From a virus (Duplodnaviria; Heunggongvirae; Uroviricota; Caudoviricetes): a stretch of 16,478 nt of DNA. Where the stretch lies: IMG/VR virus record IMGVR_UViG_2526164601_000013; one strand, given 5' to 3'. Below the pieces are notes generated by a model. It did not search any database and was not told where the DNA came from. It saw nothing but the letters and a program-made list of their open reading frames with translations. Of this stretch, positions 3,254-8,696 are shown piece after piece; position 1 is the first letter of the stretch, and each line of letters opens with the position of its first letter. The translations under genes were made by a program, and so were the position numbers.

Positions 3254-3469
3254 TCACTTTGATTCCAGACTCCGGATTATTCTGTTGCGCTGAAACTCAT
3301 TGTTGAGTTTGAACAACCGTCGAAGAACACGGTCACGCGGATAGCGTCGTGCAGCAGGTGAATGCTCATACAACTCATCAATCGGCAAACTGGACGATGA
3401 ACGATACCGATACCAACGCACCAACTCTTCACGAAAATTAGCCCTGACAAGCTCAGCTATCGTACTCAT
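3254..3469 (-). CDS. Hypothetical basic protein, 71 aa
   Basis: Track ORF with a GGAGG Shine-Dalgarno 7 nt upstream. First gene after the tR2-like terminator. Confidence 0.5.
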   Translation of the reverse strand: MSTIAELVRANFREELVRWYRYRSSSSLPIDELYEHSPAARRYPRDRVLRRLFKLNNEFQRNRIIRSLESK

Positions 3470-3555: not shown

Positions 3556-3846
3556 TCATTGCCTTACTTCCATAAGCGCCCTATTAATAAACGCCGTCAT
3601 TGGATTTGCACATCCCCACCCCGTACCATCTGGATTTCTTTTAATTGGCTCCTTCTTCACTTTGCGTTTTGCATAAATAACCGTCTTCCACTTGCGCTCA
3701 ACAACACTCAAATGCCCTTGTTTCACCATATGCCTTGCTGCTTGAGCGATTCTGTTATTTGGTATTCCGGTGATCAGAGCTAATTCATGTGGGGAGAATT
3801 GTTCATGAGTTTTCAGATATTCCAGGATGATTTCTTTTCCAGTCAC
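3556..3846 (-). CDS. ren: Ren-like winged-helix DNA-binding protein
   Basis: Track ORF, 96 aa. Same size and position (just after the replication genes) as lambda ren, with an MTGKE start and an HTH-like segment. Family assignment is from memory. Confidence 0.5.
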   Translation of the reverse strand: MTGKEIILEYLKTHEQFSPHELALITGIPNNRIAQAARHMVKQGHLSVVERKWKTVIYAKRKVKKEPIKRNPDGTGWGCANPMTAFINRALMEVRQ

Positions 3847-4706: not shown

Positions 4707-5557
4707 GAAGGCATTTCAGTTTGTCCGTAATCTTTGGTGGCAAAGTTTTCCTGCATAGCTCGATGCTGCGGACTCGGTTGAGATTTCCCCTTTGGAGTCT
4801 TGGGCTCAAAAATCCCCTGCCAACCACTGGCGATGCTCTGGTTTATAATTTCTTCAGGTGTATATCCCTTCTCCAGACTTCTGCTTAGAACGTTGATAGC
4901 CTGAGTGACACTTTGCTTAGACTTGATCGACTTACCTATCTCCTTGCGATAGGTAACCCACGACAACCATGTTTCTGCCGATAACCAATCAGGCAACTCT
5001 GTTTCTAGCGGGTCGAACTTCTGAGAAACTTTTTTGGGGGATATAGGGGGTTTATTAATATTTTCTTTTGTCTTTAAAGAATGTCTTTTGTGTGTCTCTA
5101 ACTTCGAGACATTGAGTGTCTCTAACTTCGAGACATTGAGTGTCTCTAATTTGGAGACATTTTTTGTCTCTAACTTCGAGACAAAGTTGCTAACTTGGAG
5201 ACACTTGCTGAATTGCCACGCAGATACCTCCCTGTTTACACCGATTTGATTTCCATCCATAAACAGGCAATTCATTGAAATCAGTTCTTTTTTAGCCTTG
5301 TTAACATTCTGCCTTGACAGTCCTGTTAACTGAGCAATTTGCTCATCGGCTATTCGATCTGTTTTCTTATTGAAGCCATATGTTTTCCGGACGTAGGCCA
5401 GCATAACTTTCAACTGGCGAGCGGTTAAATCGGCACTTGCGATAGCTTCCAGCAGCTCGTTAGCGAATCTGGTGTAACCATCATCGATATCAGCCACTCT
5501 TCGCTCCTGTTCAACAGGTTCACTCTTCGGCAGGTAAAATACTTCAGCCAGGCTCAT
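4691..5557 (-). CDS. O: Replication initiator, lambda O-like, with iteron-encoded peptide repeats
   Basis: Track ORF 4691..5617, trimmed to Met MSLAEV, which has a GGAGG Shine-Dalgarno 7 nt upstream. N-terminal domain ERRVADIDDGYTRFANELLEA...KTYGFNKKTDRIADEQIAQLTGLS resembles lambda O. The SKLET(L/K)NV x4 repeats are encoded by the iterons. Confidence 0.85.
   Translation of the reverse strand: MSLAEVFYLPKSEPVEQERRVADIDDGYTRFANELLEAIASADLTARQLKVMLAYVRKTYGFNKKTDRIADEQIAQLTGLSRQNVNKAKKELISMNCLFMDGNQIGVNREVSAWQFSKCLQVSNFVSKLETKNVSKLETLNVSKLETLNVSKLETHKRHSLKTKENINKPPISPKKVSQKFDPLETELPDWLSAETWLSWVTYRKEIGKSIKSKQSVTQAINVLSRSLEKGYTPEEIINQSIASGWQGIFEPKTPKGKSQPSPQHRAMQENFATKDYGQTEMPSWAQE
5040..5202. 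repeat. Putative origin of replication: four 17-bp iterons with 24-bp periodicity plus a partial fifth, and an adjacent AT-rich region
   Basis: GTCTCTAACTTCGAGAC at 5094-5110, 5118-5134 and 5166-5182; variant GTCTCTAATTTGGAGAC at 5142-5158; partial copy to 5202. Each unit is itself an inverted repeat (GTCTC...GAGAC). AT-rich tract at about 5040-5093. All lie inside the O-like gene, as for ori-lambda. Confidence 0.7.
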
Positions 5558-6188
5558 TTCCAACCTCCGCATCAAAGCATTGGGCTTCAAGAGACTTAAC
5601 CATCGCCACACTGCCATCTGTATTAATAACTATCGATGAGTTATATTTGCTTATCAGTTGCTTCGCGTAATCAATTCCGGCGCGAATAAGGAAATTTTTC
5701 ACCGCAGGAAGATGACCAACTACACTACCCATACCTTGCTCTATAAGCTCATCATTAAGATCAAGCTCATTTTCATGGCGAAAAGAAATGAATGAGTCGT
5801 AAATTGCGTATTCTGCCGTCTCGCCATTTCTTTCAGGGCCAACCAGCGCCCTTATTTCATTTAGAGATTCAGAAAGCTCATTATCTTCAAGCTTGAAAAA
5901 CTCTCGATTATCACTAAGCCTCTCTTTTGCAAAGGCTTTATGAATGAGTTTTTCATCTGATGCGGGATTATTTGAATGAAAGGCTGCTATCACCTTAAAT
6001 GGCTTAGGAACGCCAGTAGAGGCTGAAATTTCTTTAGCCCTAACTTCTGGTGAATGCTTAGTCATCCCAATCTTATAAATTCCTGGCATGCACTCATTCG
6101 AAAGCACATAAACAAAGCCATTTGATTTAAAATCATCTGGCACCTTCATGCTCTTCAGAACCTGGAATTTGTCATTTTCGTATGTCAT
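5544..6188 (-). CDS. T5orf172 / GIY-YIG-like domain protein, putative nuclease (214 aa), inserted between cII and O
   Basis: Track ORF. AGGAG Shine-Dalgarno 5 nt upstream of the ATG. N-terminal segment FVYVLSNECMPGIYKIGMTKHSPEVRAKEI ... NREFF fits the GIY-YIG-like T5orf172 pattern as I recall it. The C-terminal ~110 aa are unassigned. Confidence 0.65.
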   Translation of the reverse strand: MTYENDKFQVLKSMKVPDDFKSNGFVYVLSNECMPGIYKIGMTKHSPEVRAKEISASTGVPKPFKVIAAFHSNNPASDEKLIHKAFAKERLSDNREFFKLEDNELSESLNEIRALVGPERNGETAEYAIYDSFISFRHENELDLNDELIEQGMGSVVGHLPAVKNFLIRAGIDYAKQLISKYNSSIVINTDGSVAMVKSLEAQCFDAEVGNEPG

Positions 6189-6501: not shown

Positions 6502-6559
6502 ATGTAAGTATTTCCTTAACAAATAAGAAGTTATGCGCATCAACTTATGCGCGTTGTAT

Positions 6560-6602
6560 TCCCGCATTTCGGCGGGAATGAGGACCATGACTGTTAAAGA
6601 GC
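6560..6602 (-). promoter_or_regulatory. nutR site: boxA and boxB hairpin
   Basis: Read on the minus strand: boxA GCTCTTTAACA (plus 6592-6602) and boxB hairpin TCCCGC-CGAAAT-GCGGGA (plus 6560-6577). Both elements are identical to the nutL copies. Confidence 0.65.
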
Positions 6603-6610
6603 GGTGTTAC

Positions 6611-6835
6611 TTATGCTGCCTGATTCGGTTTTGGAAACAGGTGTGGCAAATCGGGGCGAATTTCGTAAGCCTTGATCTGCCCTCCAGTGGCGTTAACGAT
6701 GGCGGTAACTTTCTCTGGAGAGACCAACCCGCCTTTCAGCCATTTGTGTACTGCTGGCTGCGTTACACCACACTTGTCGGCAAGGCGCTTTTGGCTACCG
6801 ACAATTTTCAAGGCTCGTTGAATTACTAAATTCAT
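6611..6835 (-). CDS. cro: Cro-like repressor (HTH)
   Basis: Track ORF 6611..6856, trimmed to Met MNLVIQ, which has an AAGAGG Shine-Dalgarno 6 nt upstream. HTH segment GSQKRLADKCGVTQPAVHKW. Divergent from cI across the operator region. Confidence 0.7.
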   Translation of the reverse strand: MNLVIQRALKIVGSQKRLADKCGVTQPAVHKWLKGGLVSPEKVTAIVNATGGQIKAYEIRPDLPHLFPKPNQAA

Positions 6836-6859: not shown

Positions 6860-6946
6860 TTATAACCAAAGATAACTCAAGTTATAAAAAATAGCAATAA
6901 CCTTTGTTATTTTACTTTGGATAACCGTAGTTATAGATTTGTGGGT
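6860..6946. promoter_or_regulatory. OR operator region with divergent pR/pRM: three 14-bp palindromic operators ATAAC-N4-GTTAT
   Basis: ATAACTCAAGTTAT at 6872-6885, ATAACCTTTGTTAT at 6897-6910, ATAACCGTAGTTAT at 6921-6934, spaced 24-25 bp centre to centre, between cro and cI. Confidence 0.6.
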
Positions 6947-7654
6947 ATGAAAACATTCGCAGAAAGACTAAATGCAGCCATGAGCTCAGCAGGGGTATCA
7001 CAATCACAGCTTGCTGACATGGTTGGAATATCTCAGCCAGCCATACAGAAGATGTCGTCCGGTAAAACAAACGGATCTCGCAAGATGGTTGAATTAGCCA
7101 ATGCTTTAAAAGTGCGTCCTGAATGGCTTAGTTCTGGTATTGGTGAAATGAGGGATGGTGCACATGAAGAACCATCCAATGTCCGTGATTCATCTTTAAA
7201 AGCTGTGGTATGGGAAGACATTAAAAGAAACGATGACGAGTTTGTTGCGTTGCCTCTTCTTAACGTTTCGCTTTCAGCTGGAAGCGGTAGCTGCGAGCTA
7301 GAGGAATCATCGGAGTTCTCTTTGGTTTTCAGAAAGCACTATCTGAAAAAGATGGGAGTATCTGAAAGATCAGCCAAGCTAGTTAGGGTTGTAGGGCAAA
7401 GCATGGAACCAACGCTTCACGATGGCGATGTTGTTGGTGTTAACACGCAAGATACCACAATCAGAGATGGTAAAACCTACGCTATTTGCCAGTCTGATTT
7501 GTTACGAGTAAAAACATTAATCGCCACCCCTACATCGGTGATAATCAGATCAATAAATCGCGAAGAGTACCCGGATGAAGTAATGGATAGAGATGAATTT
7601 CATGAAACCGTAAGGATTATTGGCAGAGTATTCTGGTCGTCTCATAGTTGGTAA
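6947..7654 (+). CDS. cI: Prophage repressor cI-like (N-terminal HTH, C-terminal LexA/S24 autopeptidase domain)
   Basis: Track ORF 6917..7654, trimmed to Met MKTFAERL because the upstream part overlaps operator 3. HTH segment GVSQSQLADMVGISQPAIQKM. S24 motifs GQSMEPTLHDGDVVGV (Ser) and LRVKTL (Lys). Confidence 0.85.
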   Translation: MKTFAERLNAAMSSAGVSQSQLADMVGISQPAIQKMSSGKTNGSRKMVELANALKVRPEWLSSGIGEMRDGAHEEPSNVRDSSLKAVVWEDIKRNDDEFVALPLLNVSLSAGSGSCELEESSEFSLVFRKHYLKKMGVSERSAKLVRVVGQSMEPTLHDGDVVGVNTQDTTIRDGKTYAICQSDLLRVKTLIATPTSVIIRSINREEYPDEVMDRDEFHETVRIIGRVFWSSHSW

Positions 7655-7694: not shown

Positions 7695-7991
7695 ATGGAA
7701 TTTCTGATAGTTTTTGTTGTTGTTTTGGTCATCATTCTTTTTGTTTTGCTAAGCATTAGTAAAAAGCTATCTCAAATGATTGAACATAGCTCTAATCGTG
7801 CAAAAGAAGAAGAGCATATAATTGATATAAAAGAGATTCTCTCTGATATAAAAATCACATTAGATGAAATAAAATACACAACAGATCTAATTGAACAGTA
7901 TAAAATACCAACCCCAAACGAGAGAAAAGCAATAGATCAATATCGTATTGACTTAGAAATCGACGAAATGCTAAGCAAAAGAAAAGACTAA
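7695..7991 (+). CDS. Small membrane-anchored coiled-coil protein (98 aa) downstream of cI; candidate exclusion/abortive-infection moron
   Basis: Track ORF. GGAGGG Shine-Dalgarno upstream. N-terminal TM helix FLIVFVVVLVIILFVLLSI, then a charged helical region. Strongly AT-rich codon usage. Followed by an intrinsic terminator. Confidence 0.6.
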   Translation: MEFLIVFVVVLVIILFVLLSISKKLSQMIEHSSNRAKEEEHIIDIKEILSDIKITLDEIKYTTDLIEQYKIPTPNERKAIDQYRIDLEIDEMLSKRKD

Positions 7992-7996
7992 AAACA

Positions 7997-8023
7997 CCCG
8001 GCCTCAGCGCCGGGTTTTCTTTT
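7997..8023 (+). terminator. Rho-independent terminator ending the cI - orf98 transcription unit
   Basis: Stem CCCGGC / GCCGGG (7997-8002 / 8009-8014), loop CTCAGC, then TTTTCTTTTCC. Confidence 0.7.
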
Positions 8024-8145
8024 CCTGCCGTTCACCACCCAATCAACCATCCTCATCATAGACAAGCATCAAGCCAAAGGTAACACCTTCACCCCGCACG
8101 CAAGCCCTCAAACACCAATCAATCAGCAACATTTACAAAAATAAA

Positions 8146-8230
8146 ATACCTTTGTTATCCATCACTTATAACCTATTTACCATAAAATATAAATTAGGTT
8201 ATTGACCACACCTATAACCTAAGTTATCTT
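8146..8230 (+). promoter_or_regulatory. OL operators and candidate pL promoter
   Basis: ATAACCTAAGTTAT at 8214-8227 and ATAAATTAGGTTAT at 8189-8202, same family as the OR sites. Degenerate third site at about 8146-8181. Candidate -35 TTGACC at 8202-8207 and -10 TATCTT at 8225-8230 with a 17-bp spacer. Confidence 0.5.
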
Positions 8231-8276: not shown

Positions 8277-8317
8277 GCTCTTTAACATTGATGGGATTGT
8301 CCCGCCGAAATGCGGGA
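8277..8317 (+). promoter_or_regulatory. nutL site: boxA and boxB hairpin
   Basis: boxA GCTCTTTAACA at 8277-8287 (close to the rrn boxA consensus as I recall it). boxB TCCCGC-CGAAAT-GCGGGA at 8300-8317. Both identical to the nutR copies. Confidence 0.65.
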
Positions 8318-8424
8318 ACCAAAGAGTAGTTGGCTTTGGGGTGACGTGAAGTGCAGCTGCACGACGGCAACCGGAAGATAAGCACCCGGCGCGTCACCGC
8401 CAAAGTCAATCATCGGAGGTCAAC

Positions 8425-8696
8425 ATGACAGTAGTCATTACATATCTGGCTGACGATAACGCCAGAAATCGCGCAGAGCACGCAGACAGGCTCAACGTGA
8501 ACAGGCAATGCAAGAACAGCGATTGGCACGAAAAATTGCGCTAAAGCTCTCTGGTTGCGTCAGAGCAGATAAAGCAGCATCACTCGGAAGCCTTCGCTGC
8601 AAGAAGGCAGATGAATGCAGTGGAAGTATTTGCCTGCCAAACGTAGCCATTTACGCGGCAGGCTACCGGAAATCAAAACAACTGACGGCGAGGTAA
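8425..8696 (+). pseudogene. N: N-like antiterminator, 5' portion, apparently frameshifted
   Basis: GGAGGT Shine-Dalgarno then ATG at 8425 opens a frame reading MTVVITYLADDNA... that stops after 39 codons. The arginine-rich motif (RQKSRRARRQAQREQA) and the N-like body lie in the next frame with no in-frame start before the track ORF's ATG at 8508. Confidence 0.5.

Follow-up and report, generated by a model that had tools for sequence, protein, structure and literature searches.

Phage 434 has 14-bp operators of the form ACAA-N6-TTGT, and in the 434 repressor–operator structures Gln28 reads the A at position 1, Gln29 positions 2–3 and Gln33 positions 4–5. The operators of lambda and P22 differ from the sequence considered here, which is ATAAC-N4-GTTAT. 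Putative operators of the Stx phage PA28 (a member of the PST3 cluster) have already been given by Yin et al. 2015 (PMC4587872, Table S5) as ATAACCACGGTTAT, ACAACAATTGTTAT, ATAACTCATGTTAT, ATAACCTAAGTTAT and ATAACTATATTTAT; these are predictions, not measurements. Operators of VT2-Sakai (PST1) are 17 bp long and of the TA(C/G)TAC...GTA type (PMC4587872, Table S5), and 933W has a lambdoid Stx-phage switch with three OR and two OL sites (PMC3317979). The searchable literature yielded no footprint, EMSA, reporter or immunity test for the repressor described here or its close relatives, no relevant paper when queried with the operator sequences reported here and those of PA28, and no operator measurements when searched for HK639 and Stx-phage immunity.

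The window, by which we mean the whole 16,478-nucleotide stretch of viral DNA that was analysed (IMG/VR record IMGVR_UViG_2526164601_000013), contains a lambda-type immunity region in the orientation opposite to that of the lambda map. Matches to Pfam and PHROG together with the ORF layout identify divergent cI (HTH plus S24) and cro genes flanked by cII and N, with cII past cro (Pfam Phage_CII) and the N-peptide gene past OL. Three related palindromes lie between cI and cro and overlap the candidate PR and PRM, and sites of the same family are present at PL (8214 exact, 8189 with one mismatch). The two regulatory genes and the sites are:

6947–7654, plus strand: cI-like repressor gene, 235 aa; Pfam HTH_3 and Peptidase_S24; PHROG 4
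6611–6835, minus strand: cro, 74 aa from a likely ATG at 6835 with an AAGAGG Shine-Dalgarno; Pfam YdaS/P22_Cro/HTH_3; PHROG 35
6872–6885: OR1, ATAACTCAAGTTAT, exact match, the site closest to cro; 3-bp overlap with the PR -10
6897–6910: OR2, ATAACCTTTGTTAT, exact match; 1-bp contact with the PR -35, adjoining the PRM -35
6921–6934: OR3, ATAACCGTAGTTAT, exact match, between the PRM -35 and -10; conserved at -25 from the cI ATG
8214–8227: OL1, ATAACCTAAGTTAT, exact match; 3-bp overlap with the PL -10
8189–8202: OL2, ATAAATTAGGTTAT, one mismatch (ATAAA for ATAAC); 1-bp contact with the PL -35
8168–8181: degenerate OL3, ATAACCTATTTACC, left half-site alone intact, 21 bp upstream of OL2
8145–8158: distal weak site, AATACCTTTGTTAT, two mismatches, right half-site conserved, 11 bp in common with OR2

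We propose, with a probability of about 0.9, that the five 14-bp palindromes OR1–OR3, OL1 and OL2 are the CI operators of a lambda-type lysis/lysogeny switch, because the sites are clustered non-randomly, are placed on promoters, and co-vary with the CI recognition helix across genomes. The first-pass annotation had described three 14-bp ATAAC-N4-GTTAT palindromes at 24–25 bp spacing between cro and cI, and these are found exactly, beginning at 6872, 6897 and 6921 (25 and 24 bp start to start). It had also placed two members of the same family at OL, of which the site at 8214 is exact and the one at 8189, 25 bp away, is not, departing from the motif at one base. As to their proposed position at the -10 of the candidate pL, OL1 does overlap that element, by 3 bp, and OL2 shares a single base pair with the -35.

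The exact sequence ATAAC-N4-GTTAT occurs four times in the 16.5-kb window as against 0.01 expected from dinucleotide-preserving shuffles, and all four copies are confined to two intergenic stretches of about 70 bp. Besides OR1–3, OL1 and OL2 there is no further site with zero or one mismatch anywhere in the window, so that the whole-window scan finds none beyond the operator regions. The motif is short, with just 10 specified bases, and this is all that speaks for a chance origin of such palindromes; with none of 200 shuffles reaching four matches, and with the sites conserved across genera, we consider chance vanishingly improbable. Sites with two mismatches are near chance expectation in the window as a whole (14 found, 6.5 expected); two of them, at 6862 and 8145, lie inside the operator regions, most of the rest are dispersed over the window, and those at 3587, 7472, 8425, 8456, 8768, 10967 and 16299 were dismissed as chance matches. 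An operator longer than 14 bp was likewise rejected, there being no conservation at flanking positions -3 to 0.

At OL the window has two good sites. A third was sought, and all that was found is the half-site remnant at 8168–8181 and the two-mismatch site at 8145–8158, and a good OL3 is thus rejected. Many relatives have ATAACTTATGTGAT, with one mismatch, at the OL3 position, and binding at the degenerate copy in the window is doubtful; at the distal weak site, a merely putative one, the GTTATC half-site is kept across OL alignments of relatives. When the DNA upstream of OL2 (8145–8181) is aligned among 52 distinct relatives, the ATAAC half-site at -21 is conserved, as a full OL3 (ATAACTTATGTGAT) in many of them and in degenerate form in the window, and the family also keeps a GTTATC half-site some 35 to 44 bp upstream of OL2. 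These two half-sites face outwards, as GTTATC-N8-TATAAC.

The promoters with which these sites are associated are as follows.

8202–8230, plus strand: PL, TTGACC-17-TATCTT, found by promoter scan
6869–6897, minus strand: candidate PR, -35 TTGCTA (6892–6897), 17-bp spacer, -10 TATCTT (6869–6874), read from the sequence
6911–6939, plus strand: candidate PRM, -35 TTTACT (6911–6916), 17-bp spacer, -10 TAGATT (6934–6939), read from the sequence

PL and the putative pL annotated in HK639 are one and the same element. The candidate PR has geometry and a -10 identical to those of PL, and relatives have TGGACA-17-TATCTT at this place; the geometry of the putative PRM is also conserved in relatives, and OR2 ends one base before its -35. 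Two observations on the promoters count against the CI-operator model: PR and PRM each match the consensus at 8 of 12 positions, which is under the promoter-scan threshold, and the depositors of HK639 annotated a different putative pR. That element (TTGGGT-17-AGTAAT) was rejected as a model for PR since its spacing is not conserved in the window, in contrast to the PL-like TTGCTA-17-TATCTT geometry. In HK639 itself (locus L126) the annotated pR at 3407–3435 is a poorer consensus match than TGGACA-17-TATCTT at 3424–3452, and the latter relates to OR1 and OR2 as the annotated HK639 pL does to OL1 and OL2. The cI ATG lies 7 nt past the PRM -10 and has no Shine-Dalgarno, and transcription from PRM therefore probably starts at or next to the ATG to give a leaderless cI mRNA, as in lambda.

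The arrangement resembles that of lambda in several respects. First, cI and cro diverge, OR has three parts at 24–25-bp spacing, and the OL sites lie on PL. Second, OR1 is on the PR -10, OR2 between the -35 elements of PR and PRM, and OR3 within PRM. Third, the PRM -10 is TAGATT and the cI mRNA probably leaderless, CI contains both an Ala-Gly site and an S24 domain, and cII and N with its nut sites flank the region. There are also differences from lambda, in that the operators are 14 bp long and unrelated in sequence to the 17-bp lambda sites, the distance from OR to OL is about 1.3 kb as against 2.3 kb in lambda, and OL has only two good sites, OL3 being degenerate.

Closest among phage records are Stx1a_10051 (98.5% across the region, with an identical cI), SH2026Stx1, and the PA28-type Stx phages (cI 84%, DNA about 78%). 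In PA28 there are five sites at the corresponding places, with the half-sites kept and the N4 centers and flanks changed. The published PA28 operators are the reverse complements of the PA28 sites located here. When Table S5 of PMC4587872 is set against locus L002, the published OL1–3 correspond to the sites between cI and cro, and the published OR2 and OR3 to sites between cI and N; it appears that OR and OL have been transposed in the labels of that table.

Conservation of the sites was examined in two sets of loci. The first, a scan of IMG/VR for two adjacent sites, gave 120 loci, in 99 of which three sites are followed immediately by a cI-like ORF (47 distinct CI sequences); because these loci were retrieved with the motif, the invariance of OR among them is partly by construction, and only the OL sites count as independent there. 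In 83 of 97 distinct related loci an exact site, lying 25 bp downstream of a one-mismatch partner, is present 0.1–2.3 kb after cI, and the 14 loci in which no OL pair was found all end within 2.1 kb after cI. The deviation in OL2 is itself conserved in relatives, as ATAA[A/T/G], as is its 25-bp spacing from OL1, and the OR2 center CTTT with the adjoining TTT(T/G) is widely conserved as well.

The second set was obtained with a CI peptide pattern, using one genome per species, and is unbiased by the motif. All 13 evaluable loci in which CI has the helix [ST]QPAIQK[ML] carry two to four sites, none with more than one mismatch, in the 120 bp preceding cI, and they derive from Enterobacter, Kluyvera, Entomohabitans, Symbiopectobacterium, Serratia, Hafnia and Gilliamella. 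The sites are at -74, -49 and -25 from the cI ATG in the Enterobacterales loci, and the OR1 position, approximately -74, is filled in these protein-retrieved loci too. Among 48 half-sites from the eight loci not ascertained by motif, positions 1–5 are conserved in 47–48 of 48, position 6 is C, T or A, and the center and flanks are unconstrained.

These data bear on whether the repeats could be bound by a different factor (a host nucleoid protein, for example) or reflect AT-rich promoter symmetry with no specific regulator involved. The region is indeed AT-rich. Positions 1–5 are nonetheless invariant while the neighboring AT-rich positions drift, and the motif changes when the CI recognition helix changes. 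Moreover, of the 490 exact sites present in 1.39 Mb of retrieved loci, 480 are clustered at 20–26 bp next to cI where composition predicts 1.6 sites, a clustering figure that is inflated by the ascertainment of the loci. We regard an unrelated factor or mere promoter symmetry as very unlikely, and favor recognition of the sites by CI.

The N-terminal domain of CI is closest, among solved structures, to that of the 434 repressor (E = 3e-8), with CI residues 6–66 aligning with residues 4–64 of the 434 repressor chain, an alignment of 60 residues. The predicted recognition helix is S29-Q-P-A-I-Q-K-M36, in which Gln30 pairs with 434 Gln28, Pro31 with Gln29 and Lys35 with Gln33. The two systems have in common the fold family, a 14-bp operator with A1 and A3–A4 shared, three OR sites, and the conserved glutamine (Gln30, 434 Gln28). 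They differ in the half-site, which is ATAAC in the window and ACAA(G/T) in 434, and the proteins are only about 40% identical. Nor is the Cro of the window 434-Cro-like, being closest to Xfaso1 Cro and lambda-type Cro. With QPAIQKM and ATAAC in place of the helix QQSIEQL and ACAA-N6-TTGT, the window does not have 434 immunity. The departures of ATAAC from the 434 half-site at positions 2 and 5 would fit the Pro31 and Lys35 substitutions.

Related repressors with altered helices are informative here. ATAAC-N4-GTTAT is absent from all four protein-retrieved loci in which the helix is SQGAIQK, and TTAATMC-N4-GKATTAA is present instead, so that in this sister group, with Gly for Pro31, the half-site differs at positions 2–3. 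(Yersinia phage YP3, whose cI is 40% identical, was considered as an operator homologue and rejected; it belongs to the SQGAIQK sister group and has no ATAAC-N4-GTTAT.) The AQPTIWR phages 4A7 and ST104, together with a Klebsiella phage, have ATACG-N4-CGTAT. A Xenorhabdus locus with the helix SQPAIWRL has ATAAC-like sites nonetheless, and the residue-to-base code is therefore not clean at positions 4–5, a further point against the CI-operator model. The sister repressors with other palindromes at the equivalent place (loci L140, L145, L148, L149, L130 and L004, and L127–L129) may constitute a natural specificity series for 434-type domains. In loci collected by protein or DNA similarity, and not by the motif, the motif accompanies the [ST]QPAIQK helix, and it is absent when the helix differs, and on this pattern of co-occurrence it is very probably the recognition sequence of the repressor and defines the immunity type, as the first-pass annotation had supposed.

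Whether CI and Cro both read the palindromes is a separate matter. Cro has the recognition helix TQPAVHKW, and at 74 aa it is the length of the annotated Cro proteins of SH2026Stx1 and PA28. It is possible that one regulator alone reads the palindromes, with CI bound there and Cro using a different or partly overlapping determinant (which might include the half-site at 6862–6866), or the reverse. The closest solved structure to Cro is that of Xfaso1 Cro (3bd1), which belongs to a structural family other than that of CI and the 434 repressor, and in Gilliamella loci the motif and the CI domain are present with no Cro homologue nearby, which points to the N-terminal domain of CI as the constant partner of the motif. 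A direct-repeat half-site 10 bp from OR1 in both the window and PA28 could be read in the same way. Against this, the CI and Cro helices open with shared residues, [ST]-Q-P-A-[IV], and in the Enterobacterales loci a Cro (about 73–100% identical, mostly about 84%) always accompanies the motif. In lambda, 434 and P22, furthermore, CI and Cro use common operators. Use of the palindromes by a single regulator seems to us unlikely, and the data are consistent with a Cro that shares the CI operators, as happens in lambda and 434. At 6862–6866 there is an extra ATAAC half-site, a direct repeat 10 bp from the left half of OR1 (TTATAACCAAAGATAAC), which is also found in PA28 and in one further locus (L078), and is absent from HK639-type loci.

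The switch would then operate as follows. CI dimers would use the 434-like HTH of their N-terminal domains to read the half-site ATAAC(Y) through the helix SQPAIQKM. CI bound at OR1 and OR2 would block the -10 and -35 of PR, and at OL1 and OL2 those of PL, and this occupancy would silence transcription of cro, cII and the replication genes on one side and of N and the early left genes on the other in the lysogen. From OR2, directly upstream of the PRM -35, CI probably activates its own transcription, and OR3, inside PRM, would mediate shut-off at high CI concentration or on Cro binding; Cro would probably read the same sites. CI has a candidate cleavage site at Ala111-Gly112 together with Ser152 (in GQSMEP) and Lys189, and because of these residues RecA-stimulated self-cleavage is expected, such that SOS-activated RecA would lead to cleavage at Ala111-Gly112 and hence induction. 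Binding as such, with its order of affinities and its cooperativity, is inferred, as are activation of PRM, a leaderless cI transcript and the use of these sites by Cro.

The motif had been expected to define an immunity group that could be compared with known lambdoid types, and the comparison indicates a type that is not new. With the CI N-terminal domain as query, tblastn gives no more than 22 phage records that reach 80% identity, and these are Stx1a-type phages, SH2026Stx1, PA28/06-3462, two partial records, and the coliphage HK639 (HM208537). The helix SQPAIQKM falls within the pattern [ST]QPA[IV]QK[ML] that characterizes the PA28, HK639 and Stx1a_10051 type, and the sites, at -75, -50 and -26, correspond to the operators of that type at about -74, -49 and -25, with an OL pair 25 bp apart. 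PA28 has an identical CI helix, SQPAIQKM, a Cro helix SQPAVHKW, and the same operator family at the same positions; it differs in the N4 centers and in having one mismatch in OR2. In HK639 the CI N-terminal domain is 85.5% identical, there are three ATAAC-N4-GTTAT sites at -74, -49 and -25 as well as OL1–3, and the annotated putative pL stands in the same relation to OL1 and OL2. HK639 differs in that its CI C-terminal domain is only about 26% identical, put-RNA antitermination takes the place of N, no operators are annotated, and the annotated pR deviates from the PL-like geometry.

Affiliation with 933W was considered, as the Cro of PA28 is annotated as 933W-like, and was rejected; the annotated 933W operators are 15 bp long and of the CGTACTGAAAGTACG (CGTAC) type, the window has neither such operators nor the 933W CI, and the recognition helices of CI and Cro are unrelated. 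The VT2-Sakai operators also differ in sequence from those found here, excluding the window from that type. By sequence, the window shares its immunity type with PA28 and HK639, and this type differs from those of lambda, 434, P22, 933W and Sakai.

The window is thus a new and previously unannotated member of an immunity type that had already been predicted computationally, and its operators are a routine feature of a lambdoid prophage that adds nothing conceptually to the lambda paradigm. What is gained is the assignment of an operator sequence, and hence an immunity type, to a prophage family that includes Stx1a-converting phages of O26, O111 and O157 strains. Of 5,426 complete E. coli genomes, 196 have a match to this family and 98 of these contain most of the region (about 2–4%). 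The assignment helps to predict exclusion or co-repression between Stx prophages, and provides defined targets for reporter and footprint work on Stx-phage induction.

Two by-products are of somewhat greater interest: CI is mosaic in structure, and sister cassettes appear to form a series in which specificity changes with single residues. One type of DNA-binding domain, with its operators, is found with very different C-terminal S24 domains (loci L009, L021, L007, L102 and L012), and among phages that share the operators CI identities are 53–89% for N-terminal domains and 21–62% for C-terminal domains. The junction lies directly after ...EWLSSGxGxMR, and the -74/-49/-25 spacing of OR is unchanged across the Enterobacterales C-terminal-domain types. 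With the evidence evenly poised, the CI N-terminal domain and its operators, usually with cro, may form a portable specificity cassette that is distributed across Enterobacterales and Gilliamella and joined through the linker to four or more widely differing S24 C-terminal domains, with sister cassettes in which single recognition-helix residue differences are accompanied by matching half-site changes (QPAIQK with ATAAC, QGAIQK with AATMC, QPTIWR with ATACG). If so, these cassettes would provide a natural series for reading the 434-type recognition code, and homoimmune phages could carry independent induction and cooperativity modules.

Several other features of the region were noted. Identical 18-nt boxB-like hairpins (CCCGCCGAAATGCGGGAA) are located at 6559–6576 (minus strand) downstream of cro and at 8301–8318 (plus strand) downstream of PL, and the N protein of the phage presumably uses them as nutR and nutL. 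The N antiterminator gene (8425–8696) is split by a 1-bp deletion within 8464–8479, where CGCCGC has become CGCGC in the arginine-rich motif, leaving two ORFs, an N-terminal one of 39 aa and a C-terminal one of 62 aa (8508–8696). An intact N allele is present in all 17 same-type IMG/VR loci, and no complete E. coli genome is identical to the window at the deletion (the best match is 99.4%, with a span of 342 as against 341 bases). The frameshift is either a private inactivating mutation, which would make the prophage defective, or a sequencing error.

Between cII and the replication genes there is an inserted gene for a 214-aa protein (5544–6188, minus strand) with T5orf172/MUG113 (GIY-YIG-like) domains, the PHROG matches of which are mostly of unknown function. 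Directly after cI lies a 98-aa ORF (7695–7991) with a hydrophobic N-terminus, no Pfam match, and a match to PHROG 18389 (unknown function), and it is followed by a strong terminator-like hairpin at 7996–8015. In the lysogen, PRM probably drives transcription of this ORF along with cI, and the position of the ORF resembles that of lambda rex, or of the 933W genes between cI and tM.
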